From positions 1 through 21,658 of IMG/VR virus record IMGVR_UViG_3300045988_119128: a stretch of DNA of 21,658 nt; one strand, written 5' to 3'. The translations under genes were made by a program, and so were the position numbers. Below are positions 2,512 through 21,658 of the stretch, piece after piece (positions within the stretch are counted from its first letter, which is position 1; every line of letters begins with the position of its first letter). Origin of the DNA: a virus. Lineage: Duplodnaviria > Heunggongvirae > Uroviricota > Caudoviricetes. The notes beneath the pieces were generated by a model that was not told the origin of the DNA, did not search any database, and worked only from the letters and a program-made list of their open reading frames with translations.

Positions 2512-3143
2512 AGAGGGCTCCCGGTTGTGCCGCCGCTGTCGCCGGGGTGTTTATGGGTATGCAGTACCTTACCGTTTGATGAGAGTTCACCGCCGGTGTG
2601 TTCAATGTTGCCGCGCATCGTCCCGCCCTTCTGCACTTCCAGCGTGCCGGTAATCAGCCTGTTGGTGCAAACCACCTCCGGTGTGTCCAGGGTGACGCGG
2701 GTTGATGCTTTCACCATGACCACCGGCACCGTGGCAGTAACAGAATCAGAAGCCGTCACGCTGGCCGTTTTAATTCCGCTTACCGTGAGTGCACTGGTTT
2801 CGGGTTCATACTCAATCACCGCCCCGTCAGGGAAACGGATATGCAGGGCATCCGCCGACGCAGACGGCGCGGGGTTATCGCCGGAATAAATCCCCGGCAG
2901 AACGAACGCCGTGTCGAGTTCACCGCCCACAGCCAGAATCAGCACCTGTTCCCCCACGGAAGGTGCCCACCATGTGCGCGAACGTCCGGCACGATGGGTC
3001 AGCCACTGAAGCCAGTCAGTGCACATGCCACCGGTCTGCACACGGCAGCGACCGGCTTTAAGGTTGGTTTCGACGACAAGGCCGGTACGAATCATGTTGC
3101 GCAGTGCGCGCGCGAGTTCCTGAATATTTGCGAGAGTGTTCAT
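2508..3143 (-). CDS. V: Baseplate spike/assembly protein gpV
   Basis: ORF-track frame 2508..3161 begins at a non-ATG codon. The first ATG (3143-3141) gives 211 aa starting MNTLANIQELARALRNMIRTG, matching the P2 gpV N-terminus and length. Confidence 0.88.
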   Translation of the reverse strand: MNTLANIQELARALRNMIRTGLVVETNLKAGRCRVQTGGMCTDWLQWLTHRAGRSRTWWAPSVGEQVLILAVGGELDTAFVLPGIYSGDNPAPSASADALHIRFPDGAVIEYEPETSALTVSGIKTASVTASDSVTATVPVVMVKASTRVTLDTPEVVCTNRLITGTLEVQKGGTMRGNIEHTGGELSSNGKVLHTHKHPGDSGGTTGSPL

Positions 3144-3226: not shown

Positions 3227-4012
3227 ATGTTCAGTGATAATGTGACTAATGCGTGGTGGTTTATCTCTTTGTATCTATTTTTATTAATAGCATTAACATT
3301 TATTACCTTTGGTAAAAGTAATCTTATGAGGTTTATTGCACATCATTTCAATTTTGAGTATTCAGACAGAAAGTTAAAAATGCTCGACAAAAAATGGCGC
3401 GACATTCAACTATTTAAAATAATTAACGGAATCAATGTATCAGGCATCGAAGATGTGAGAATGATACAGCAGGGGCTGATTGATGGAAAACTAAAAACAT
3501 CGTATTTTTTTCTTACTCGCTTCTGGGGTGACATAACAAAACCACCACACATAATTAAAACAATAATTGTAATTCTGTCCAGCATTATTTATATTCTCTT
3601 CGCATGTTATATACACAACAAACAATCCGCTATAGTAAGAGATGCCATAGGCATACCATATAAAAATATGATGTACTATGTTTATAGTGACAAAGTTCTT
3701 TTATCCTTCAACAATAAAACAGTTGAATTCAATAAAACTTATAGCCTTGCCGATTGCAAGAGGCTACGAAACATATTTATAAAAGACACACTTCCTGAGA
3801 TCGCCTGCAATAAGCTCTTACGGCTAAACGAGGAGGACTCGGAATGGTTAAGTCAGGAAATTAAAGATAATAACAGCCAAAAAAAAGCATTATTAATAAT
3901 ATCCCTCATCTATTTCATTTCAGGCCTGGTTATATTTCTGTCATATACAAAATTCCTTTACGCCAATAAGAAGGTTGTAGAATACAAAGCATCAAATAAA
4001 AATCACTCATAA
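3227..4012 (+). CDS. Hypothetical membrane protein, AT-rich moron at the P2 orf30 position
   Basis: 261 aa ORF on the opposite strand to the flanking late genes, visibly AT-rich. Strong SD GAGGAG at 3215-3220, six nt before the ATG. Three hydrophobic segments (about residues 9-28, 107-127, 222-243). Lies between S and V, where P2 carries accessory orf30. Confidence 0.7.
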   Translation: MFSDNVTNAWWFISLYLFLLIALTFITFGKSNLMRFIAHHFNFEYSDRKLKMLDKKWRDIQLFKIINGINVSGIEDVRMIQQGLIDGKLKTSYFFLTRFWGDITKPPHIIKTIIVILSSIIYILFACYIHNKQSAIVRDAIGIPYKNMMYYVYSDKVLLSFNNKTVEFNKTYSLADCKRLRNIFIKDTLPEIACNKLLRLNEEDSEWLSQEIKDNNSQKKALLIISLIYFISGLVIFLSYTKFLYANKKVVEYKASNKNHS

Positions 4013-10457: not shown

Positions 10458-12230
10458 ATGACCATCACCACAGACACCACTCTTTTACACGACCCGCGTC
10501 GTCAGGCGGCGCTGCTGTACTGGCAGGGGTTTTCCGTGCCGCAGATTGCCGCCATGTTGCAGATGAAACGCCCGACGGTGCAGAGCTGGAAACAGCGCGA
10601 CGGCTGGGACAGCGTTGCCCCCATCAGCCGTGTCGAAATGAGTCTGGAAGCGCGGCTGACCCAGCTCATCATCAAACCGCAGAAAACCGGCGGTGACTTC
10701 AAGGAAATTGACCTGCTGGGACGCCAGATTGAACGGCTGGCGCGGGTCAACCGCTACAGTCAGACCGGCAACGAGGCAGACCTTAATCCGAACGTCGCTA
10801 ACCGCAACAAAGGCGGGCGTCGCAAACCGAAAAAGAATTTTTTCAGTGACGAGGCCATCGAAAAGCTGGAGCAGATTTTCTTTGAGCAGTCTTTCGACTA
10901 TCAGTTGCACTGGTATCGCGCCGGGCTTGAGCACCGCATCCGCGATATCCTGAAATCCCGCCAGATTGGCGCGACGTTTTATTTTTCCCGCGAGGCGCTG
11001 CTGCGCGCCCTGAAAACCGGTCATAACCAGATTTTTCTGTCGGCCAGTAAAACGCAGGCGTATGTGTTCCGCGAATACATCATCGCCTTTGCCCGGCTGG
11101 TTGACGTTGACCTGACCGGTGACCCGATTGTCCTGGGCAATAACGGCGCAAAACTGATTTTTCTCGGCACCAACTCCAACACCGCGCAGAGCCATAACGG
11201 CGACCTGTACGTCGATGAGATTTTCTGGATCCCGAATTTTCAGGTACTGCGTAAGGTGGCATCAGGTATGGCCTCACAGAGTCACCTGCGCTCGACCTAT
11301 TTCTCCACCCCGTCCACGCTGGCGCACGACGCCTATCCGTTCTGGTCGGGTGAACTGTTCAACCGGGGACGCGCCAGCGCCGCCGAACGCGTGGAAATCG
11401 ACGTCAGTCATAACGCCCTTGCCGGTGGGCTTCTCTGTGCGGACGGCCAGTGGCGGCAGATTGTCACCATTGAGGACGCCCTGAAAGGTGGCTGCACGCT
11501 GTTCGACATTGAGCAGCTTAAACGCGAAAACAGCGCCGACGATTTTAAAAACCTGTTCATGTGTGAATTTGTTGACGACAAGGCGTCGGTATTCCCGTTC
11601 GAGGAGCTGCAACGCTGCATGGTCGACACGCTGGAAGAATGGGAAGACTATGCGCCGTTTGCCGCGAATCCGTTCGGCTCCCGCCCGGTCTGGATTGGTT
11701 ACGACCCGTCACACCGTGGCGACAGTGCCGGATGCGTGGTGCTGGCACCGCCGGTGGTGGCCGGTGGCAAATTCAGAATACTTGAGCGTCACCAGTGGAA
11801 AGGCATGGACTTTGCCACCCAGGCTGAATCCATCCGCAAACTCACCGAAAAATACAACGTCGAATACATCGGTATTGATGCCACCGGCCTCGGTGTCGGC
11901 GTGTTCCAGCTCGTGCGCTCGTTCTATCCCGCCGCGCGCGACATCCGCTACACGCCGGAAATGAAAACCGCAATGGTGCTCAAGGCAAAAGACGTCATCC
12001 GCCGTGGCTGTCTGGAATACGACGTCAGCGCCACCGACATCACCAGCTCGTTTATGGCTATCCGCAAGACCATGACCAGCAGCGGACGCAGTGCCACCTA
12101 TGAAGCTAGCCGCAGCGAGGAAGCCAGCCACGCCGACCTCGCCTGGGCGACCATGCACGCCCTGTTAAATGAGCCACTCACCGCCGGTATCAGCACCCCG
12201 CTGACATCCACCATTCTGGAGTTTTACTGA
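10458..12230 (+). CDS. P: Terminase large (ATPase) subunit gpP
   Basis: ATG at 10458 with GAGG Shine-Dalgarno gives 590 aa starting MTITTDTTLLHDPRRQAALLYWQG, matching P2 gpP length and N-terminus. Confidence 0.93.
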   Translation: MTITTDTTLLHDPRRQAALLYWQGFSVPQIAAMLQMKRPTVQSWKQRDGWDSVAPISRVEMSLEARLTQLIIKPQKTGGDFKEIDLLGRQIERLARVNRYSQTGNEADLNPNVANRNKGGRRKPKKNFFSDEAIEKLEQIFFEQSFDYQLHWYRAGLEHRIRDILKSRQIGATFYFSREALLRALKTGHNQIFLSASKTQAYVFREYIIAFARLVDVDLTGDPIVLGNNGAKLIFLGTNSNTAQSHNGDLYVDEIFWIPNFQVLRKVASGMASQSHLRSTYFSTPSTLAHDAYPFWSGELFNRGRASAAERVEIDVSHNALAGGLLCADGQWRQIVTIEDALKGGCTLFDIEQLKRENSADDFKNLFMCEFVDDKASVFPFEELQRCMVDTLEEWEDYAPFAANPFGSRPVWIGYDPSHRGDSAGCVVLAPPVVAGGKFRILERHQWKGMDFATQAESIRKLTEKYNVEYIGIDATGLGVGVFQLVRSFYPAARDIRYTPEMKTAMVLKAKDVIRRGCLEYDVSATDITSSFMAIRKTMTSSGRSATYEASRSEEASHADLAWATMHALLNEPLTAGISTPLTSTILEFY

Positions 12231-13264
12231 TGAGCAAGAAAAAAGGGAAAACACCGCAACCTGCGGCAAAAAAAATGACCGCCAGCGCCCCGAAAATGGC
12301 GGCATTCACCTTTGGTGAGCCGGTGCCGGTACTCGACCGCCGTGATATTCTGGATTACGTCGAGTGCATCAGTAACGGCAGATGGTATGAGCCACCGGTC
12401 AGCTTTACCGGTCTGGCAAAAAGCCTGCGTGCTGCCGTGCATCACAGCTCACCGATTTACGTCAAACGTAATATTCTGGCCTCAACGTTTATCCCGCACC
12501 CGTGGCTTTCCCAGCAGGATTTCAGCCGCTTTGTGCTGGATTTTCTGGTGTTCGGTAATGCGTTTCTGGAAAAGCGTTACAGCACTACCGGTAAGGTCAT
12601 CAGACTGGAAACCTCACCGGCAAAATATACCCGCCGTGGGGTGGAGGAGGATGTTTACTGGTGGGTGCCGTCCTTCAACGAGCCGACACCTTTCACGCCC
12701 GGCTCCGTGTTTCACCTGCTGGAGCCGGATATTAATCAGGAGCTGTACGGCCTGCCGGAATATCTCAGCGCCCTTAACTCTGCCTGGCTGAATGAGTCGG
12801 CCACGCTGTTCCGCCGCAAGTATTACGAAAACGGCGCACATGCCGGATACATCATGTACGTCACTGATGCCGTGCAGGATCGCAACGATATCGAAATGCT
12901 TCGCGAAAACATGGTGAAGTCGAAAGGCCGCAACAACTTTAAAAACCTGTTTCTCTATGCCCCACAGGGAAAAGCCGACGGCATTAAAATTATCCCGCTC
13001 AGTGAAGTGGCGACGAAGGACGATTTTTTTAATATCAAAAAAGCCAGTGCCGCAGACCTGCTGGACGCGCACCGCATCCCCTTTCAGTTGATGGGCGGCA
13101 AGCCGGAGAACGTCGGGTCGCTGGGTGATATTGAGAAAGTGGCAAAGGTCTTTGTCCGCAATGAGCTTATCCCGTTACAGGACAGGATCCGTGAGATAAA
13201 CGGCTGGCTCGGTCAGGAGGTCATCCGCTTTAAAAACTACTCACTGGACACTGACAACGGCTGA
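12230..13264 (+). CDS. Q: Portal protein gpQ
   Basis: 344 aa ORF, same length as P2 gpQ; start overlaps the P stop; followed by terminator and cos. Confidence 0.93.
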   Translation: MSKKKGKTPQPAAKKMTASAPKMAAFTFGEPVPVLDRRDILDYVECISNGRWYEPPVSFTGLAKSLRAAVHHSSPIYVKRNILASTFIPHPWLSQQDFSRFVLDFLVFGNAFLEKRYSTTGKVIRLETSPAKYTRRGVEEDVYWWVPSFNEPTPFTPGSVFHLLEPDINQELYGLPEYLSALNSAWLNESATLFRRKYYENGAHAGYIMYVTDAVQDRNDIEMLRENMVKSKGRNNFKNLFLYAPQGKADGIKIIPLSEVATKDDFFNIKKASAADLLDAHRIPFQLMGGKPENVGSLGDIEKVAKVFVRNELIPLQDRIREINGWLGQEVIRFKNYSLDTDNG

Positions 13265-13269
13265 ACATC

Positions 13270-13291
13270 GCCGCCTGCGGGCGGCTTTTTT
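13270..13291 (+). terminator. Rho-independent terminator of the P-Q operon
   Basis: GCCGCC (13270-13275), loop TGCG, GGCGGC (13280-13285), then TTTTTT (13286-13291), 5 nt after the Q stop. Confidence 0.65.
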
Positions 13292-13432
13292 ACACCCCGT
13301 CATCACGCCCTCACACGCTCACCACCGCACAAAACACCCCGCAGACACACCAACGCCCCGGCGCACAATCTAAACGCCATCACGACGCGCTGAGACGCTA
13401 AAAAATAAAATCAGCACCACCGCCAGCGCGCA

Positions 13433-13451
13433 GTGCTTTCCCCGCCTCGCC
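13433..13451. other. cos cohesive-end site (packaging/termination site)
   Basis: GTGCTTTCCCCGCCTCGCC is the reverse complement of the 19-nt P2 cohesive end GGCGAGGCGGGGAAAGCAC as I recall it; the adjacent bases also resemble the start of the P2 genome. Lies about 170 bp beyond the portal gene, as in P2. Confidence 0.75.
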
Positions 13452-13667
13452 CGCCCGCTTCGTGGGGCGATTTTAATGCGGTTGCATGACAAATAGAAAT
13501 GCATGCTAGCCTTTACATAAGGACTACTTAGCAACACTTATATCCTCATGCAAATTCATGCAGGTTCTACATGTAATACTTTGTCTAGACAATATAAAAC
13601 TTGCACATGTTACAAAAGAAGCCTCTAAAAAAAGCAATGAGGATTCAGCCTATCAAATAACAAAATA

Positions 13668-14699
13668 TCACAAGAACTCAATTACAAATTCATTCTCTTG
13701 ATACTTACGTCCTAACATAACTTCATGTGCCGTTTCATAATTTGGCTTAACTTTTAAAGATGCATTATTATGTTTCAACAAAGTTTTAGCCCTGTACATT
13801 CCTATTCCGCTTCCCGCACGATTACTCTTTTTAGCCATAACACCAGAGTACCCCTCAATAAAGATCTTATCGATCTCATCAGGATTAATTACAAGGCTAA
13901 CCATCTTAAATGAAATAGATAATTTTTTTGTCTCTGTGTTTTTATCGAAACAAATCACCAACCTCGAATCAGGCTTAATATATTTAACAGAGTTTTCAAT
14001 TAAATGATACACAGCAACCTGAAAAGTCTCATAATCAATATATACCGTATCATTAGATTCAGCCACTTCAACACGAATTCCCTTATCCGTAAACTCAGGG
14101 AAAAAGACATACACTATATTCATTAAAACTCGATGAATACTATGATTTCTCAATGCTATTTTTGGATGCTCACTCAATAAAGCATTATAAACATCTATCT
14201 CAGCCTTCATCTTGAGTGTATTTTTTGCAATATTAACTAATGACAATCCTGCATCATATGGGTCTTCAGCCACCTGTTCTTTTATTCTATTTTTCCAACC
14301 CGCTCGCTTATCCTGCATAACTTCTTGAGGGATAATAGAGTAAACCTCTTGGATAATATGACCATTGAGAGTAACCAAGTTATGAATCAATCGATTAACA
14401 TGTTGCTTTGCCTCTTCCTTAGCCTTACGGTGAGCTTCTTGCACGGAAGGAATACCGTCAAGCAACATCTCAGCTTTAGCTCGTGCAACTTTCGAACTCT
14501 TAAGCATTGCATCATTTGCTGATATTAATGTTACAACTCCAAATTGATTGGATACTCTTACAGCTCTATAGGCAACTTTATTATATGAGAACTTAACTGA
14601 CTCTGCCTTCAGAGAGTTGAAGTGCTCTAAAAGCTCCCTCTCAATATTATTGACTAACAAACAACCATCTGTCGTTTCCAACTTATAATAAAAAGACAT
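13668..14699 (-). CDS. Histidine-kinase-like ATPase (GHKL family), soluble; cargo gene 2 of island
   Basis: 343 aa AT-rich ORF with ATG at 14699-14697, 12 nt after the upstream gene stop. Motifs by eye: candidate H-box LIHNLVTLNGH, N-box-like VYHLIENSVKY, G2-like GSGIGMY; no clean DxGxG G1 box. No TM segment. Confidence 0.65.
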   Translation of the reverse strand: MSFYYKLETTDGCLLVNNIERELLEHFNSLKAESVKFSYNKVAYRAVRVSNQFGVVTLISANDAMLKSSKVARAKAEMLLDGIPSVQEAHRKAKEEAKQHVNRLIHNLVTLNGHIIQEVYSIIPQEVMQDKRAGWKNRIKEQVAEDPYDAGLSLVNIAKNTLKMKAEIDVYNALLSEHPKIALRNHSIHRVLMNIVYVFFPEFTDKGIRVEVAESNDTVYIDYETFQVAVYHLIENSVKYIKPDSRLVICFDKNTETKKLSISFKMVSLVINPDEIDKIFIEGYSGVMAKKSNRAGSGIGMYRAKTLLKHNNASLKVKPNYETAHEVMLGRKYQENEFVIEFL

Positions 14700-14711
14700 T
14701 TTAAAGCACCA

Positions 14712-15329
14712 TCAAGCAAAACTTTCTACAATTGTCTGGAACTGATAAGGATCTGCATCCTTTGGTAAAAAATCGTCTACCTCTCGAAGAGCTTTATGGA
14801 ATCTATCACCTGTTTGCTCTGCGGAGTAGATAATGATTTTCTTTTCTGGATATTTTGTTTTCAAAGCGAGAGCCAAGCCCAACCCTTCTTCGTTAGGTGT
14901 AATTTCAAGCCCAACCCCTTGTATATCAACAAAGATTATCTTAGCTTCCCTTATTTCGACTTGATCAATACTATCTGCATCCTTAATTAGCTTCGTATGC
15001 ACCCAACCGGCCTTTTGTAAAATCTTAACTACTTTAAATCTCACTTCATCATCAATAAAAAGTATTTTTGTAGTGTTTTTTTTATAATCCAGATCTTTTT
15101 TATCATCCACCATGGCATCATCCTTCTTAGAAGAGTCTAAGTTACCATTATAGATGTTCAAATTGACATTTTGTTCATTTGTAATCGGTTTGGAGTCCTG
15201 AACAACAGCCTGTGTTTGGCCTGAAAAGAACTTTTTCCACACGACACTCCCAAGCCACCCAACAATAGTTACACCAACACCACCAAAAGCCCAGTTGATT
15301 AAAGGATGAGAAGACGGGTCGAAATCCAT
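14712..15329 (-). CDS. Membrane-anchored receiver-domain (REC) protein without DNA-binding output; cargo gene 1 of island
   Basis: ATG at 15329-15327 with GAGG Shine-Dalgarno 6 nt upstream gives 205 aa (MDFDPSS...); the ORF-track start at 15386 is a TTG. One N-terminal TM helix (INWAFGGVGVTIVGWLGSVVW), a charged linker, then a CheY-like receiver: KILFIDDE, IIFVDIQG (candidate phosphoacceptor Asp), IIIYSA, LPKD. Confidence 0.7.
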   Translation of the reverse strand: MDFDPSSHPLINWAFGGVGVTIVGWLGSVVWKKFFSGQTQAVVQDSKPITNEQNVNLNIYNGNLDSSKKDDAMVDDKKDLDYKKNTTKILFIDDEVRFKVVKILQKAGWVHTKLIKDADSIDQVEIREAKIIFVDIQGVGLEITPNEEGLGLALALKTKYPEKKIIIYSAEQTGDRFHKALREVDDFLPKDADPYQFQTIVESFA

Positions 15330-15357
15330 GATAACCTCAATAAAATAAGAAAATTCT

Positions 15358-15386
15358 ACTATAAACAAAATTCTTAATTCGATCAA
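15358..15386 (-). promoter_or_regulatory. Candidate sigma70 promoter for the island operon
   Basis: On the minus strand: -35 TTGATC (15386-15381), 17-bp spacer, -10 TATAGT (15363-15358), about 30 nt upstream of the REC-gene ATG, in the AT-rich gap after the A stop. Confidence 0.35.
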
Positions 15387-15496
15387 TAGCTTAAAAAATC
15401 GACACCCGATGTGGTTGGTAGGCTATATGCTGTAGAAGTAGACAATTTCGTTCATCAGTTACTAAAAAACCTCAAACGATAGTAGTTAAGCCCCAA

Positions 15497-17773
15497 TTAA
15501 TAAAATGTAGTGAATCCACGAAACTCATTTTCAGATGAGTACACAGCTTTATAATTACCATATGAAATCGTGGCCCCGCGCGCCAGCGCCTCAAGCTCCC
15601 ATCGCTGCGGCCTGATACCGTTCTGAGCAAGGTCAACGCGGATACGAGTAATTTGCAATCGTTCCGACCGGGTCAGTCTGGCCGACGGTGCTATTTCATG
15701 TGGTTTTAACGGGCTTCCGTTTCTTTGCTGACGACTTGGCGTTCTCAGCCCGTGTTTTAATGCGCCCCTGAGCGTCCTCACGACCTCCGGGTCATTCCAT
15801 TCGATAACACCGTCATCAACCAGATTTAGCACTGCTGCGGCGTGCTCAGAAGGTGTGGGAGCCAGTAACGAAGGATCACCACCGGTGAGCTTTCCACAGT
15901 TATTGACAGGACTCCGAGGCGCGGCGATGCCGCTTTTTAAAGTCAAAGGCTCCACGACCGGAACTTTCGGCACAATGCGCCAGTCCGTCGTTCTGGTGAT
16001 ATGAATATGACGCGCGCCGAGATGCGGCGCGTAAATGCCGACCACTCTCTCGACTTCTTCCTCGTACTCGTTAACTTCATCCGACGGGCTACGGGCGACT
16101 CTGACAGTCTGGCAATCGCGCGGAACATTTGCCCCACCCTGCGCACTGATATACAACGCAAAATCGCCACTGTCTGCGGCAGCGCGTGCAGCCTCGACGC
16201 GTTCGTCAAACTCATCAGCAATGCTGACGCCGCGAGGCAATTTGCGTAGTTCACGGTAAGCCCCCATTGTCGGCAGACCAACCGTTTTAAATTGCGGGAT
16301 GCGCCACGTTGACGCCCATGCAGTAACAGCCGCGGCAGTATCTTTCAGCGGTCTGCCGGTATCGTTATCGAGCTGCCCATCCAGTGCATAGCCGTCGATA
16401 TTTTTTGAGATGTATTTCGCGATATACCCCGCAGCACCGCCCCGGTTAAGATGTTTTGCCTGAAAACGGTTTCGCGCGGCTCCTCTTTCGTCGCCATCCT
16501 CTTTGAGCGCATAGCGACGCATGATTTCGATAATCTGGTTACGCTGGCGTGGATTACAAAAAAGCATCATATGCCAGTGCGGCGTTCCGTCGTGGTGTGG
16601 CTCGACGACACGCAAACCGTAGGCCTGTAAATCATTATCCTTGAATGCCGTGCGCATCAGGCTCCAGATACGGCAGAGATAACGCTGCGCATCCTTTGGA
16701 TTAAATGCCTTATCGTTCCAGCCGTGATTAAGCTGAACGGTTTTACTTTCGCCTTTTCCGACCTGACGTGTCGGGTGATACTTTGACGGTGCGGTCAGCG
16801 TGATAAACATCCCCACATCACCCTCTGCAGCGGCGTAACGCTCAATACCGGCAATGGTGTTCATCAGCTCCATCCGGCGAATTTCAGGATTAGAAATACT
16901 GCCCATCACCTTACTGATAAGGTCGATGCGCTCGCCGGTTTCCTTATTTTCAAGGTCACACGATTTAAGAAATTCCAGATTTGCCTGGCGGCGTGCACGC
17001 ACATCACGAATGGCATGTTTACTGGCATAAGGAGAACGGTCTTTATTGACCTCCCCGACAGCAATCAGTAACGCCTCATGCCAGCGCATACGCTGGCCTT
17101 TAAGCTGATGAGTCCACCACTCATCGTTAAACAGACGGGCAATGGCAGAATATGCCTGCCTCGTGGTCATCTGCCCTTTACGGTATTTTTTCCAGTAGAG
17201 AGGGGAAATATTGAAAGCTCGTGCAGCGCCAGCAACATGACCATACAGGTGAGCCTGCGCCTCATCCGTAAACAGCGATTCTTTCTCGCCATGCGCATCC
17301 ACCCAGGCATCGCAGAGTTCCTCATACATCATGAAAAGCTGTGATGAGATACGGGCGGCAAACTTTTTCAGCTCCTTGTCATTCATTCCAGGCAAACGCG
17401 CATAATGGTCACGCTCTGCCAGAAACAGCAACGACGCGTCGGTGTTCATTTCATGGCGCTGATTCACACGCTCAATGCGCGGCCATAAACGACGCTGAAA
17501 AGTGGATGTGAGGAAATAAAACCCGTGCACCGGGCTTTTATTGCGCCGGATGTAGTCATAGCGTGAAGTAAACAGCGAGCGCAAAAAATAAGGCAGGCGG
17601 TTAATCGTGGATAAAACACCTTGCACCTGACGCATCTCGTCACGTGTAAGAGGTCTTTCGCGCCCGACAGCCTCGCGTGGCGCGTTCCATGCATAAGCAC
17701 CGGTAAACGTCTTACCGGTGCCTGCGGCAAATGCTGACGGAGGGACAAAACGCCCGGAGGCTTTAACGGCCAT
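15497..17773 (-). CDS. A: Replication initiation endonuclease gpA (rolling-circle Rep)
   Basis: ATG at 17773-17771 gives a protein starting MAVKASGRFVPPSAFAAGTG, the P2 gpA N-terminus; the ORF-track start at 17815 is a TTG. Contains HWH (PHWHMMLF) and tyrosine (AGYIAKYISK) motifs typical of rolling-circle initiators. The last ~23 codons are AT-rich and appear to differ from P2. Confidence 0.9.
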   Translation of the reverse strand: MAVKASGRFVPPSAFAAGTGKTFTGAYAWNAPREAVGRERPLTRDEMRQVQGVLSTINRLPYFLRSLFTSRYDYIRRNKSPVHGFYFLTSTFQRRLWPRIERVNQRHEMNTDASLLFLAERDHYARLPGMNDKELKKFAARISSQLFMMYEELCDAWVDAHGEKESLFTDEAQAHLYGHVAGAARAFNISPLYWKKYRKGQMTTRQAYSAIARLFNDEWWTHQLKGQRMRWHEALLIAVGEVNKDRSPYASKHAIRDVRARRQANLEFLKSCDLENKETGERIDLISKVMGSISNPEIRRMELMNTIAGIERYAAAEGDVGMFITLTAPSKYHPTRQVGKGESKTVQLNHGWNDKAFNPKDAQRYLCRIWSLMRTAFKDNDLQAYGLRVVEPHHDGTPHWHMMLFCNPRQRNQIIEIMRRYALKEDGDERGAARNRFQAKHLNRGGAAGYIAKYISKNIDGYALDGQLDNDTGRPLKDTAAAVTAWASTWRIPQFKTVGLPTMGAYRELRKLPRGVSIADEFDERVEAARAAADSGDFALYISAQGGANVPRDCQTVRVARSPSDEVNEYEEEVERVVGIYAPHLGARHIHITRTTDWRIVPKVPVVEPLTLKSGIAAPRSPVNNCGKLTGGDPSLLAPTPSEHAAAVLNLVDDGVIEWNDPEVVRTLRGALKHGLRTPSRQQRNGSPLKPHEIAPSARLTRSERLQITRIRVDLAQNGIRPQRWELEALARGATISYGNYKAVYSSENEFRGFTTFY

Positions 17774-18038
17774 ATGAGCCAAAAGCCTCTGAACAACGCC
17801 TGCTGAGTTGCTCAACCTGCACGTTTAAATCGGCAAAAGATTTTGCGCTTCCGGTCAGAATATCGTGATGCATCAGGCCGGAAACGAGCTGGCTTAATTT
17901 CGGGTAATAACCAACCACCGCCAGCCATTCCTGACCGGCGTTTTTACCGCTTTCCGCTCTCTTTTTCTCGTGGAGAATAAACTGAAAGCTGTCACTGGTA
18001 ACGACATAACGTTCGCCAATTTCAATACGAATACTCAT
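17763..18038 (-). CDS. Small early-operon protein (P2 orf83 position)
   Basis: 91 aa ORF directly upstream of A, overlapping its start; position matches P2 orf83. Confidence 0.7.
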   Translation of the reverse strand: MSIRIEIGERYVVTSDSFQFILHEKKRAESGKNAGQEWLAVVGYYPKLSQLVSGLMHHDILTGSAKSFADLNVQVEQLSRRCSEAFGSYGR

Positions 18039-18259
18039 GCCGTTCTCCGGTAATGTTTGTTTTTTGCTTCAAAGACTGACTGACAGGAAACACAACGCGT
18101 GGCTGACGGATAAGCCGCACGACGGGCAGCAGGTATTGGCGCATCACACTCTTCGCAAACCAGCGCAGAAGCACCACAATGTTTTACCCTTGCTGCGTTA
18201 ATCTGGCGCTCCAGTAATTCAGCCTGTTGTTCCTGAATAAAATCCACATTGTCCGGCAT
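18035..18259 (-). CDS. DksA/TraR-type C4 zinc-finger protein (P2 orf82 position)
   Basis: 74 aa ORF with CxxC...CxxC (CEECDAPIP...CVSC); overlaps neighbours by 1-4 nt. Confidence 0.75.
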   Translation of the reverse strand: MPDNVDFIQEQQAELLERQINAARVKHCGASALVCEECDAPIPAARRAAYPSATRCVSCQSVFEAKNKHYRRTA

Positions 18260-18564
18260 TACCAGCTCCTTTTGTCGTTCAGTTTCTTAAATTCATCAGC
18301 GCAATAGCTGGCGATTTCTGTCGTTAATTTTGTCAGTTCATCCACGGAGGAAATTTGCTTGTGAAATACAGCGCGTTTAACAAGTAAATTGACCACATCA
18401 GACAGGAGGTTTAATTCACTCTGATAAATCGCGATAACAGATTCAGTTATTTCGCGTTTTTCTTTATCAAGACCAAGTTGAATAAGAGACAAATCGCCAT
18501 TTTTCATAACGACGATTTTTAAGGCATTGTTCAGTAAAACAACTGAACGAGAACAGGACATCAA
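18259..18564 (-). CDS. Small early-operon protein (P2 orf81 position)
   Basis: 101 aa ORF translationally coupled to flanking genes. Confidence 0.7.
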
Positions 18565-18785
18565 AGCACCTCCCCGCGAGACAATCCGATGTTGTGAAAT
18601 TTTTCCGACTCCTGACTGAGCAGCTCGACTATCTCCACGCGGGATAACTCCGCCTTTGTGATGTGGCGAATCATGGCGTCAAGATGAGAAGAAAAGCGCG
18701 TCGCAGCGTCGGCCTGTGCTTCGGTTCTGGCCTGTTGCAGCAGTAATGCGTATTTACCGCACTGATTTTCAGAAACTGTATGCAT
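18561..18785 (-). CDS. Small early-operon protein (P2 orf80 position)
   Basis: 74 aa ORF downstream of B in the early operon. Confidence 0.7.
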
Positions 18786-18848
18786 GACTTTCTCCAGGCA
18801 AAAAGAAGCCCCGCACGATTAAGTGCGTTAAAAACTCTGGTTAATTAC

Positions 18849-19349
18849 TTAATGCAGATATTGCTCTGGTTTTACCGACGTCAGAATTGTCGGTGCATAC
18901 TCAAACAGACTGAATAATTCACGTAATGCACGGAATAAAGCATCACGCCAGTAACATGATTCTTCATTAATTCGCCAGTATGGCTGGTTAAATTCTTTTT
19001 CTGTCAGTCGTGCGTGCATAAATAAAGTGCGACGCTGACTGACTGTTAAAAAACTAATATATGCATACTCACTTGCGCCAACCTGACGGCGTTTTGAGAA
19101 TGCCCCACGCAATTCATCAATTGCACATACCAGTCGTTCACGTTCGACGTCGTTCATTTCTTCAAAACGCATCGTTGCGTGACGCTGTTTTAACTGAGCA
19201 TGGAAGCAAACCGTTAACCGTTCGCGCTCCATCATCTGATTATAATAATCACATGTATCCTGCCAGCGAGGAACGGCAAGATGCTTACCAATTATCCGGC
19301 GCATAGCTGCTGGCTGTTTTTCAACGAGATTGAGCGTCATCACTGTCAT
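18849..19349 (-). CDS. B: Replication protein gpB (helicase loader-like)
   Basis: 166 aa ORF, same length as P2 gpB; synteny cox-orf78-B. Confidence 0.85.
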   Translation of the reverse strand: MTVMTLNLVEKQPAAMRRIIGKHLAVPRWQDTCDYYNQMMERERLTVCFHAQLKQRHATMRFEEMNDVERERLVCAIDELRGAFSKRRQVGASEYAYISFLTVSQRRTLFMHARLTEKEFNQPYWRINEESCYWRDALFRALRELFSLFEYAPTILTSVKPEQYLH

Positions 19350-19540
19350 TTCCAGACCCTCCGGCTTTTCAGAAAGGTCAGAGCCTTTTTTACCGGACTC
19401 TGTTTTTTGGTGCGGATAATGATTCCCTTACGCCCCTTACCGTGGGTGATGGTGAAGTCAATCGCCCTGGGGCTTTCGTTACGCAATAACTGAGCAATAC
19501 AACGAGGCTCATTCATACGGTTCTCCTTAACGTGGTTCAC
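19346..19540 (-). CDS. Small early protein (P2 orf78 position)
   Basis: 64 aa basic ORF between cox and B; start overlaps the cox stop region. Confidence 0.6.
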   Translation of the reverse strand: MNHVKENRMNEPRCIAQLLRNESPRAIDFTITHGKGRKGIIIRTKKQSPVKKALTFLKSRRVWK

Positions 19541-19802
19541 CGAGACCTAACCACATCAACCAGCCGTCACGAATCTCTTTAGGACGGCTTTCATAAGCCA
19601 GTTTTAGTCCGTTATTCCATGCCGGAAGGTATACCCAATATTCACCAGCACGCCCCGATACTGACTGAGGGTCAGTAATCTCAATAACTGGTAATTTCCC
19701 TTTCTCAATCATGCCCCTTACAGCTCTTGGAGTTTTACCAATGAGTTTTGCAAACTCCTGATAAGGCACGGCATCAGTCACGCTTACAAGCTGTCTATTC
19801 AT
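19527..19802 (-). CDS. cox: Cox excisionase / lytic-switch repressor
   Basis: 91 aa ORF containing DAVPYQEFAKLIGK...GKLPVIEITDP...GRAGEYWVYLPAWNNGLKLAYESRPKEIRDGWLMWLGLGEPR, matching P2 Cox in length and sequence; divergent from C. Confidence 0.9.
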   Translation of the reverse strand: MNRQLVSVTDAVPYQEFAKLIGKTPRAVRGMIEKGKLPVIEITDPQSVSGRAGEYWVYLPAWNNGLKLAYESRPKEIRDGWLMWLGLGEPR

Positions 19803-19923
19803 CTGCTACGATTCTCCCTTAGTGCTTCTAATGGCTCCTAATGGCTAATTATTGCCTAAAAGGATAACTCCAGAAGCACAACATTTCACACTATCAGCAA
19901 GAAATTACGCAATCGGAGTAATT
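19803..19923. promoter_or_regulatory. Lysis-lysogeny switch region (divergent Pe/Pc promoters and C operators)
   Basis: 121-bp gap between divergent cox and C. Two direct repeats CTAATGGCT at 19828-19836 and 19838-19846, one helical turn apart, resembling the direct-repeat operator arrangement bound by P2 C. Confidence 0.5.
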
Positions 19924-20223
19924 ATGTCAATAGACGTTTCGGAGAAGTTGAAGCTAATCCGTGAATCTGAAAGGTTAAACCGTAAAGAATTCAGTGAATT
20001 AACTGGTGTAGCCTACAGCTCACTTTCGAGCTATGAGAGCCGGTCAAAAAACGCTGGAGTTGAAGCCATAATGAAGGTCTTACAACATCCTAGATTTACT
20101 AAATATACTTTGTGGTTCATGACTGATCAGGTAGCTCCAGAAGCCGGGCAAATTGCGCCCGCTCTCGCACACTTTGGGCAAAACGAAACAACGTCGCCCC
20201 ACTCCGGTCAAAAGACTGGTTAA
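19924..20223 (+). CDS. C: Immunity repressor C
   Basis: ATG at 19924 with GGAG Shine-Dalgarno gives 99 aa starting MSIDVSEKLKLIRESERL and ending QIAPALAHFGQNETTSPHSGQKTG, matching P2 C. The ORF-track frame begins earlier at a TTG. Confidence 0.9.
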   Translation: MSIDVSEKLKLIRESERLNRKEFSELTGVAYSSLSSYESRSKNAGVEAIMKVLQHPRFTKYTLWFMTDQVAPEAGQIAPALAHFGQNETTSPHSGQKTG

Positions 20224-20338
20224 CAATTTATCGTGAATATATTCATCACAAGTGCCTACTATTGGTGGCTAAATTTCAGCCACCACGAAAAAAGCGATTA
20301 GTAGTAGCAAAAAAAAGTACCACTCGGAGGGTTTTCTG

Positions 20339-21352
20339 ATGGCAATCAAAAAACTCGATGATGGTCGATATGAAGTGGACATCCGCCCTACTGGACGTAA
20401 TGGAAAACGCATCCGTAGGAAGTTTGATAAGAAAAGCGAAGCTGTCGCTTTCGAAAAATACACGTTGTACAACCACCACAATAAAGAATGGCTATCAAAA
20501 CCAACAGACAAACGACGTCTGTCGGAACTGACACAGATCTGGTGGGATTTAAAGGGTAAACACGAAGAGCATGGGAAATCTAATCTTGGAAAAATTGAAA
20601 TCTTCACAAAAATAACGAATGACCCATGCGCATTTCAAATCACGAAATCCCTTATCAGCCAGTACTGCGCCACCCGAAGAAGTCAGGGTATTAAACCTTC
20701 GAGTATCAATCGTGATTTAACATGTATTAGCGGCATGTTTACAGCCCTGATTGAAGCGGAGTTATTCTTTGGTGAGCACCCTATCAGAGGGACAAAGAGG
20801 CTTAAGGAGGAAAAACCAGAAACAGGCTATCTCACACAGGAAGAAATTGCCTTACTGCTTGCAGCACTTGACGGCGACAATAAAAAGATTGCGATTCTTT
20901 GCCTGAGTACAGGAGCACGTTGGGGAGAAGCAGCTCGTTTGAAAGCAGAAAATATCATCCATAACCGCGTCACGTTTGTTAAAACGAAAACAAACAAACC
21001 ACGCACCGTCCCGATCTCAGAGGCTGTTGCCAAAATGATCGCGGATAACAAACGAGGTTTTTTATTCCCTGATGCTGATTACCCTCGCTTCAGACGAACA
21101 ATGAAAGCAATAAAACCGGATTTGCCAACGGGGCAAGCCACACATGCACTAAGGCACAGCTTTGCCACTCATTTCATGATTAATGGAGGAAGTATTATCA
21201 CGCTACAACGGATACTAGGTCACACGCGGATTGAGCAAACTATGGTTTACGCTCATTTTGCGCCAGAGTACCTTCAGGACGCCATTTCTCTTAATCCGCT
21301 AAGAGGTGGTACTGAGGCCGAGAGTGTCCACACAGTGTCCACAGTAGAGTAA
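20339..21352 (+). CDS. int: Tyrosine integrase (P2 Int family)
   Basis: 337 aa ORF, same length as P2 Int; GGAGG Shine-Dalgarno 8 nt upstream; C-terminal catalytic region with R...HxxR...Y-type motifs (ALRHSFATHF...MVYAHF). Confidence 0.92.
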   Translation: MAIKKLDDGRYEVDIRPTGRNGKRIRRKFDKKSEAVAFEKYTLYNHHNKEWLSKPTDKRRLSELTQIWWDLKGKHEEHGKSNLGKIEIFTKITNDPCAFQITKSLISQYCATRRSQGIKPSSINRDLTCISGMFTALIEAELFFGEHPIRGTKRLKEEKPETGYLTQEEIALLLAALDGDNKKIAILCLSTGARWGEAARLKAENIIHNRVTFVKTKTNKPRTVPISEAVAKMIADNKRGFLFPDADYPRFRRTMKAIKPDLPTGQATHALRHSFATHFMINGGSIITLQRILGHTRIEQTMVYAHFAPEYLQDAISLNPLRGGTEAESVHTVSTVE

Positions 21353-21431
21353 CGTTTAAGGGCTTTCAGTGGTAATTTATGCCGCTCAAACCCGCATTGT
21401 ACCGTTGAAAGCCCCTACTGGTGACACCCTA

Positions 21432-21458
21432 AATATCCCTTACACGGGCTTATTTTTT
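21432..21458. other. att core-like sequence (prophage-host junction)
   Basis: AATATCCCTTACACGGGCTTATTTTTT is, by my recollection, the reverse complement of the 27-bp P2 attP core with one mismatch. It lies about 80 bp beyond the int stop, and sequence to its right has no phage gene. Confidence 0.55.
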
Positions 21459-21658
21459 ATGTATAAGCCGTATCCTGGTAACCGTCTTCCATTGACCACA
21501 TCGAAAGAATCTCCCTTCATAGCACGATGCCTTTCACTTATTGGCATCGTGCTCGCACAGGTTCCGGTTACGCACAGCCAGAACGCGCATGTTTGATGCT
21601 TACTAAAAAATATTCTCACTCTCCACATTTGAATGTCAGACGAGCGACGCCATGTAAT

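Follow-up and report, generated by a model that had tools for sequence, protein, structure and literature searches.

A conserved promoter-like site heads a PDC-M43 receiver/kinase cassette in the defence hotspot of a P2-like prophage

Temperate phages carry autonomous accessory modules known as morons, a concept of Juhala and Hendrix (as cited in PMC7067206), and phage accessory loci are typically transcribed during lysogeny (PMC7067206). In P2-like phages, the interval from gpA to cos and portal gene Q (gpA-portal) is a known defence hotspot (PMC9122126; PMC13586616). Its residents include old and tin/orf91 of P2. Systems from this hotspot protect against phages when driven by their native promoters, and also in lysogens (PMC9122126), and old has been shown to work from its native promoter (bioRxiv 10.64898/2026.07.10.737580). 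Among systems that combine a histidine kinase with a receiver protein, Detocs replaces the DNA-binding output with a presumed killing module; it consists of three genes (dtcA, kinase; dtcB, stand-alone receiver; dtcC, receiver-effector), and variants with transmembrane effectors exist (bioRxiv 10.1101/2023.01.24.525353). A further family, PDC-M43, is a computational candidate. It is not mentioned in any paper of the literature that we searched, nor is its promoter described there.

The cassette described here lies in the window (the whole 21,658-nt stretch of DNA that was analysed) and consists of a receiver gene followed by a histidine-kinase-like gene. It resembles a moron in sitting between backbone genes that, in relatives, are direct neighbours or enclose other cargo, in having a base composition unlike that of the backbone (32–40% versus 50–58% G+C), and in carrying its own predicted promoter, which would permit expression from a repressed prophage. 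It differs from a moron in that it has two genes in an operon instead of a single gene, and in that no terminator was found within it, the nearest one downstream being located in the backbone beyond cos. Judged by these predicted features, its layout is that of a classic phage moron, or of the P2 old/tin type of hotspot cargo. It shares with old and tin/orf91 the slot downstream of gene A (PMC9122126; PMC13586616), but carries a receiver and kinase pair, for which a role in phage resistance is a candidate function, and no sequence similarity was found between the cassette and old, tin or orf91.

As for PDC-M43, both proteins match the A and B models of the family and their genes are adjacent in the A-then-B order. 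We found no difference from the family, of which the locus is a member, the family itself being a computational candidate. The likeness to Detocs lies in the combination of a histidine kinase with a receiver protein in which a presumed killing module takes the place of the DNA-binding output. In contrast to the three genes of Detocs, the cassette has two: no stand-alone receiver of the DtcB type is present, and the two genes alone are conserved together across all loci. Furthermore, the transmembrane segment of the cassette is N-terminal to the receiver, whereas the effector of DtcC is C-terminal, and the cassette kinase is short (343 aa) with no TPR sensor domain identified by Pfam. By analogy of architecture, the cargo may be a minimal relative of Detocs in which the kinase would signal to a membrane-fused receiver, but it falls outside the three-gene definition of that system.

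The P2-like hotspot and its cargo

The window is a P2-like prophage in which gpA, the cos site, the portal gene and the terminase gene are all present, and the chromosome of E. coli DETEC-P881 matches it at 100% identity. The main features around the hotspot are listed below.

15497..17815, minus strand: replication gene A (gpA); Pfam Phage_GPA, 1.5e-123; replication endonuclease in RefSeq
15387..15496, minus strand: AT-rich unique filler of 110 nt, outside the conserved cassette and without an intrinsic terminator
14712..15329, minus strand: receiver gene, PDC-M43A, 205 aa; PADLOC PDC-M43A, 8.5e-82
13668..14699, minus strand: histidine-kinase-like gene, PDC-M43B, 343 aa; PADLOC PDC-M43B, 1.1e-172
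13433..13451, minus strand: cos cohesive-end sequence GGCGAGGCGGGGAAAGCAC, right boundary of the hotspot; exact match
13414..13429, minus strand: first terminator-like hairpin and T-run downstream of the operon, found by scan, in backbone DNA beyond cos
12230-13264, plus strand: portal gene Q; the terminase gene is also on the plus strand

Gene A closes the P2-type early operon. Its annotated start falls inside the open reading frame at 15497..17815 and its stop codon is at 15499-15497 on the minus strand. The 19-mer GGCGAGGCGGGGAAAGCAC at cos also closes the linear genome record of phage L-413C. Between the gene A stop and cos, the island spans ~2 kb, downstream of the early operon and in the same direction, and its cassette occupies the slot between gpA and cos/portal gene Q. 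The flanks alone were matched in 2,158 E. coli genomes, where the slot is filled with other cargo (Panacea/DUF2975, HEPN and hypothetical proteins). The DNA search recovered the island itself from only one of 5,426 complete E. coli genomes, that of the source strain. It was absent from the phage records searched, and a plasmid search returned one marginal match and no plasmid carrier.

DNA homology to other E. coli P2-like prophages ends near 15565, about 22 codons before the gene A stop (15497-15570, minus strand). The C-terminal tail of gpA has diverged in sequence and still shows a similar pattern (…Y.G.K..Y….E..GF). As this break lies within gene A, the variable region of the hotspot starts inside the gene. 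On the plus strand, opposite the 3′-terminal part of gene A, positions 15528-15555 read TTTTCA-16-TATAAT, a 10/12 promoter-like sequence that exceeds the intergenic site discussed below in its match to the consensus; this segment belongs to the unique diverged tail.

In the receiver protein, a single transmembrane helix near the N terminus (residues 13-31) is predicted to precede a CheY-like receiver domain. Its match to Pfam Response_reg (5.9e-5) is under the curated cut-off; the canonical receiver residues D93, D94, D135, S169 and K190 are invariant in 29/29 homologues. The kinase-like gene begins 12 nt past the receiver stop codon. Its product matches HATPase_c at 1.4e-5, with 25.9 bits just under the cut-off of 26.4, and the top hits in PDB and NCBIfam are catalytic domains of histidine kinases. 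All 32 sequences compared share His106 of the H-box, Asn236 of the N-box and three glycines of the G-box (G296, G298 and G300). The PADLOC matches of both proteins span the full-length models, and beyond PDC-M43 only a marginal match to PDC-M03A was obtained. A defence role of this receiver/kinase cargo is at present a candidate annotation by PADLOC.

The two genes are adjacent in the receiver-then-kinase order in 31/31 related loci of many phyla. The same adjacent pair in loci L006-L032 comes from Gammaproteobacteria, Bacteroidota, Verrucomicrobiota, Bdellovibrio, Patescibacteria and others, with the receiver protein 36–60% identical across them. The pair is a widespread two-gene module without a published function.

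The intergenic site and its conservation among related loci

The gap between the gpA stop and the base before the receiver ATG (15330..15496) is exactly 167 nt long and contains 32% G+C. The first-pass annotation had placed in this AT-rich gap a near-consensus sigma-70 promoter, TTGATC and TATAGT separated by 17 nt. The motif is present as described, on the minus strand and with correct coordinates. Together with the leader, its parts are as follows.

15381..15386, minus strand: -35 hexamer TTGATC; contains a GATC Dam site and forms the left edge of cassette homology
15364..15380, minus strand: spacer of 17 nt; the first 12 positions vary and the last 5 (TTGTT) are conserved
15358..15363, minus strand: -10 hexamer TATAGT, from the promoter scan; 5/6 positions invariant, TATATT in the other close loci
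15349..15357, minus strand: discriminator and predicted transcription start zone, from the column table of the alignment
15330..15348, minus strand: conserved short 5′ leader with a Shine-Dalgarno sequence, GAGG at 15338-15335

The -10 hexamer ends 28 nt ahead of the receiver ATG (15329-15327), and GAGG is located 5 nt ahead of this ATG. Sigma-70 transcripts usually start 6–8 nt downstream of the -10 hexamer, and from this distance the transcription start is expected at ~15352-15349.

The sigma-70 consensus hexamers are TTGACA and TATAAT, with a spacer of 16–18 nt and an optimum of 17 nt. TTGATC agrees with the consensus at 4/6 positions and TATAGT at 5/6, giving 9/12, so that the description as promoter-like holds and "near-consensus" was generous. 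The promoter scan found 15 such 9/12 sites in 13000-21658, compared to 13.6 expected from shuffles, and at least one 9/12 site occurs in 1348 of 5000 (27%) dinucleotide-preserving shuffles of the 167-nt gap. The weight-matrix score of the site was reached in 204/5000 gap shuffles (4%); the matrix frequencies behind these shuffle scores, and behind the scans of 250-nt upstream regions described below, are approximate values. With this approximate matrix, the site is one of three with at least 12.5 bits on both strands of the whole window. The motif alone is barely above chance and is not significant in AT-rich DNA. We regard it as a probable promoter because it is conserved in related loci, and not because of the motif itself.

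The second site of at least 12.5 bits, TTGACA-17-TAATTT at 19930-19902 on the minus strand, lies upstream of a cox-like open reading frame and is presumably the early promoter Pe. The third, TTGTAA-17-TATATT, is at 3567 on the plus strand. A competing -10 hexamer in the gap, TAGAAT (15360-15355) paired with TCGAAT (8.9 bits), was rejected, as it is not conserved in other loci. By inspection, no extended -10 element was found, the conserved TG being one base too far upstream, and a T/A-rich, UP-like stretch is particular to the window, with no conservation elsewhere. Inspection also revealed neither a second half-site of the FNR/CRP type around the promoter nor a TGT-N12-ACA element of the type found in P2 late promoters.

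Since the DNA searches gave no second island, related loci were gathered through the kinase protein. Seven close loci, from E. coli, Klebsiella pneumoniae, K. aerogenes, Kosakonia, Serratia and two metagenomic contigs, have genes with 70–83% DNA identity and were used for the footprint. A scan of one genome per species gave relatives of at most 41% identity from other phyla, which were used for gene order and not for the footprint, and a scan of viral contigs added two loci (L054 and L055). The 12 distinct cassette loci compared include P2-like prophages from five genera as well as one lambdoid prophage and one chromosomal remnant.

Conservation around the site is selective. TTGATC is invariant in 7/7 aligned loci, and 11 of the 12 hexamer positions are invariant among the seven close loci, the window having TATAGT at -10 where the others have TATATT. 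Within the spacer, 0/12 positions are invariant from 15380 to 15369, followed by four invariant positions (15368-15365), and the block TTGT-TATA-T is invariant save two positions. The G two bases past the -10 hexamer (15356) is also invariant among the seven, and from the -35 hexamer to the ATG, 32/57 positions are unchanged. As a neutral yardstick, the same seven sequences all agree at 71 of 550 third codon positions (12.9%). The absence of invariant positions in the first 12 nt of the spacer is what this neutral rate predicts, whereas the binomial probability of at least 11 invariant hexamer positions out of 12 at this rate is 1.8e-9. Mean pairwise identity is 29%, or random level, over the 40 nt upstream of the -35 hexamer and 40% over the first 10 spacer positions, compared to 91% over the proximal spacer and the -10 hexamer. 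The invariance of the G at 15356 would fit a favourable contact between sigma region 1.2 and the discriminator. Part of the conservation at -10 could reflect another constraint, given that conservation extends over the entire leader, from -20 to the ATG.

The left edge of shared sequence falls at the -35 hexamer. In 4/6 pairwise comparisons, blastn homology extends from 15387-15392 to 13667-13675, that is, from the -35 hexamer to the kinase stop; in the remaining two (L043 and L046) it starts inside the spacer, at 15368-15369. The regions upstream of TTGATC do not align among the seven close loci. In the window, the filler at 15387..15496 does not align with other PDC-M43 loci and has no match in other genomes among the 5,426 from E. 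coli or in the phage records.

The geometry is fixed across the wider set, where 12/12 distinct loci have TTGAyy, exactly 17 nt and TAnAkT, with the -35 hexamer reading TTGATC, TTGAAC or TTGATT and the -10 hexamer ending 28–39 nt from the ATG. The distant loci retain this promoter architecture though their leaders have diverged; those of Brenneria, Pantoea and Erwinia and the two viral contigs read as follows.

L047, Brenneria: TTGAAC-17-TATATT
L048, Pantoea: TTGATT-17-TAAATT
L050, Erwinia: TTGATT-17-TATATT
L054, viral contig: TTGATC-17-TATATT
L055, viral contig: TTGATC-17-TACATT

In an unbiased matrix scan, the orthologous site ranks top within 250 nt upstream of the receiver gene in 10/10 enterobacterial loci. 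For the locus from Pseudomonas (L052), no clear orthologous site emerged from the scan.

The site is transferred together with the cassette into different surroundings. Gene A immediately precedes the cassette in the window and in three further loci (L039, L040 and L046), dinI precedes it in L038, and hicAB, a strong terminator and a small open reading frame precede it in Brenneria L047. In the Serratia prophage (L043), a cos-like sequence (3039-3109) lies upstream, so that the cassette is on the same side of cos as the portal gene. In the lambdoid prophage of Pantoea dispersa (L048), the cassette begins 780 nt downstream of an ASCH gene; its presence there indicates that the module passes between phage backbones that are unrelated. 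The gene upstream is divergently oriented both in Erwinia (L050), one of the 12 loci, and in Pseudomonas (L052), which is additional to them. This orientation excludes read-through, and the operon thus needs its own promoter in these loci; in L050, the orthologous site is the best promoter candidate.

Some details of these loci may be recorded here. In L043, a DUF8093 gene accompanies the cassette in the space from cos to the portal gene. The genes of the L048 prophage include Cro, a lambda-P-like gene and ASCH, and further on the antiterminator Q, with an nSTAND1/AAA ATPase gene nearby. In the Erwinia chromosome, a degenerate cos-like remnant, GGAGTGGCGGGGAAAGCA, precedes the cassette at ~3250-3290 of L050, and this locus, next to a SLFN/AlbA_2 gene, looks like a decayed P2-like prophage.

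As the hexamers and the 17-nt spacing are kept while the spacer and flanks vary, the site has the marks of a promoter under selection that is passed on with the cassette. Based on these sequence comparisons, we consider it probable, at roughly three chances in four (0.77), that 15386-15358 forms a working sigma-70 promoter belonging to the cargo cassette and not to the phage backbone. The earlier proposal of a promoter independent of the repressed early genes is thus supported by the conservation of the hexamers, by the fixed 17-nt spacing and by the loci with divergent neighbours.

Predicted expression and alternative readings

RNA polymerase holoenzyme would bind TTGATC-17 nt-TATAGT and start transcription at ~15352-15349. 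The product would be a bicistronic mRNA with a leader of ~20 nt and the GAGG ribosome-binding site, encoding the membrane-anchored receiver and then the kinase-like protein. The C repressor of P2 acts only at Pe/Pc, which would lie ~4.4 kb upstream of the cassette. With repression limited to Pe/Pc, transcription of the cassette could proceed in the lysogen, as for old, tin and other hotspot cargo, and expression there is what we infer from this arrangement.

Transcription from the early operon would probably contribute as well. No terminator was found by scan between the gene A stop and the promoter; the predicted RNA fold across the gap (15520-15330) does not exceed shuffles in stability, and by inspection the two T-runs in the gap are preceded by stems of merely 3–5 weak pairs. 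As nothing separates gene A from the cassette in this respect, early-operon transcripts probably also run into the cassette during lytic growth. Such read-through from the early promoter is likely to act in addition to the cassette promoter and not to replace it.

The alternative that best withstands the evidence, and which we still consider unlikely, is a promoter that is real and nevertheless silent or conditional in the lysogen, through H-NS acting on the island with its 32–38% G+C or through methylation of the GATC by Dam. Lysogen expression would then be slight, and the functional side of the earlier proposal would not hold in practice. In E. coli, H-NS often silences acquired DNA that is rich in A and T, so that even a genuine promoter there may be inactive in the lysogen; the AT content of the island is far above that of the backbone, and the GATC is kept within the -35 hexamer of all nine close loci. 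Against silencing, a defence module must pre-exist the arrival of a phage. Experience with cloned hotspot systems bears on both sides, as Rousset et al. reported one system that was inactive natively and needed an inducible promoter, while most native-promoter clones were active (PMC9122126). The methylation variant may also be taken in a stronger form, in which the GATC at -35 (within TTGATCAA) would tie expression of the module to replication of the prophage or host. If so, initiation would sense the passage of a replication fork through hemimethylated or unmethylated DNA. We regard this version as distinctly doubtful. The GATC is not retained in the more distant loci, being lost in Brenneria, Pantoea and Erwinia (TTGAAC or TTGATT).

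It is also very improbable that the conserved block, while functional, is not a promoter or not solely one. TTGATC(AA) would then be a palindrome for a regulator or a preferred recombination joint, and the segment from -20 to the ATG a translational or RNA element. The sequence TTGATCAA is indeed a perfect palindrome in most close loci and sits exactly where cassette homology begins, and the leader is conserved (32/57) well past the needs of a -10 hexamer. However, the distant TTGAAC and TTGATT sites retain the TTGA of the -35 hexamer while losing both the palindrome and the GATC, and the 17-nt distance to a -10-like hexamer persists in them. A recombination joint would find no support in flanking direct or inverted repeats of the transposon or integron type, none of which were found bounding the cassette. 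As for an RNA element, there was no credible match to Rfam-type known RNA families in 13200-15700, and the predicted fold of 15520-15330 is not more stable than those of shuffled sequences (z = +1.38). The receiver protein also has no DNA-binding domain through which it might regulate its own operon.

The weakest alternative, a chance match in AT-rich DNA with the island transcribed only by read-through from Pe after derepression, has in its favour that 27% of gap shuffles hold a 9/12 site, that the number of sites equals the shuffle expectation, that about eight other 9/12 sites occur in the AT-rich island and that the missing terminator between gene A and the island makes read-through physically possible, but we consider it the least probable of all, as 11/12 invariant positions at a fixed 17 nt are unexpected where the spacer and upstream flank change freely, as the cassette is also found behind a divergent gene, behind a terminator and in a lambdoid prophage, and as P2 Pe cannot feed it in the non-P2 loci L048, L050 and L052.

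Read as a promoter that belongs to the cassette, the site would complete a minimal self-contained PDC-M43 unit from ~15400 to 13600, comprising the promoter, the leader and the two genes. The fact that the shared sequence starts, on its left, at the -35 hexamer would explain how the module can work in P2-like, lambdoid and chromosomal settings. Such a unit is predicted to be expressed, with no added promoter, in lysogens and in heterologous enterobacterial hosts, and it would be a clean example of defence-hotspot cargo that moves as promoter-first cassettes. It leaves the current understanding of accessory-gene expression in prophages unchanged, as the design is an ordinary one for accessory genes of temperate phages.

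At its other end, the cassette provides no terminator: homology among the loci ends at the kinase stop, and the next terminator-like site is in the backbone. The DNA between the kinase stop and the point where the backbone resumes before cos (13490-13667, ~178 nt) is AT-rich and common only to L045, and it contains a 20-nt imperfect palindrome at 13570-13603.
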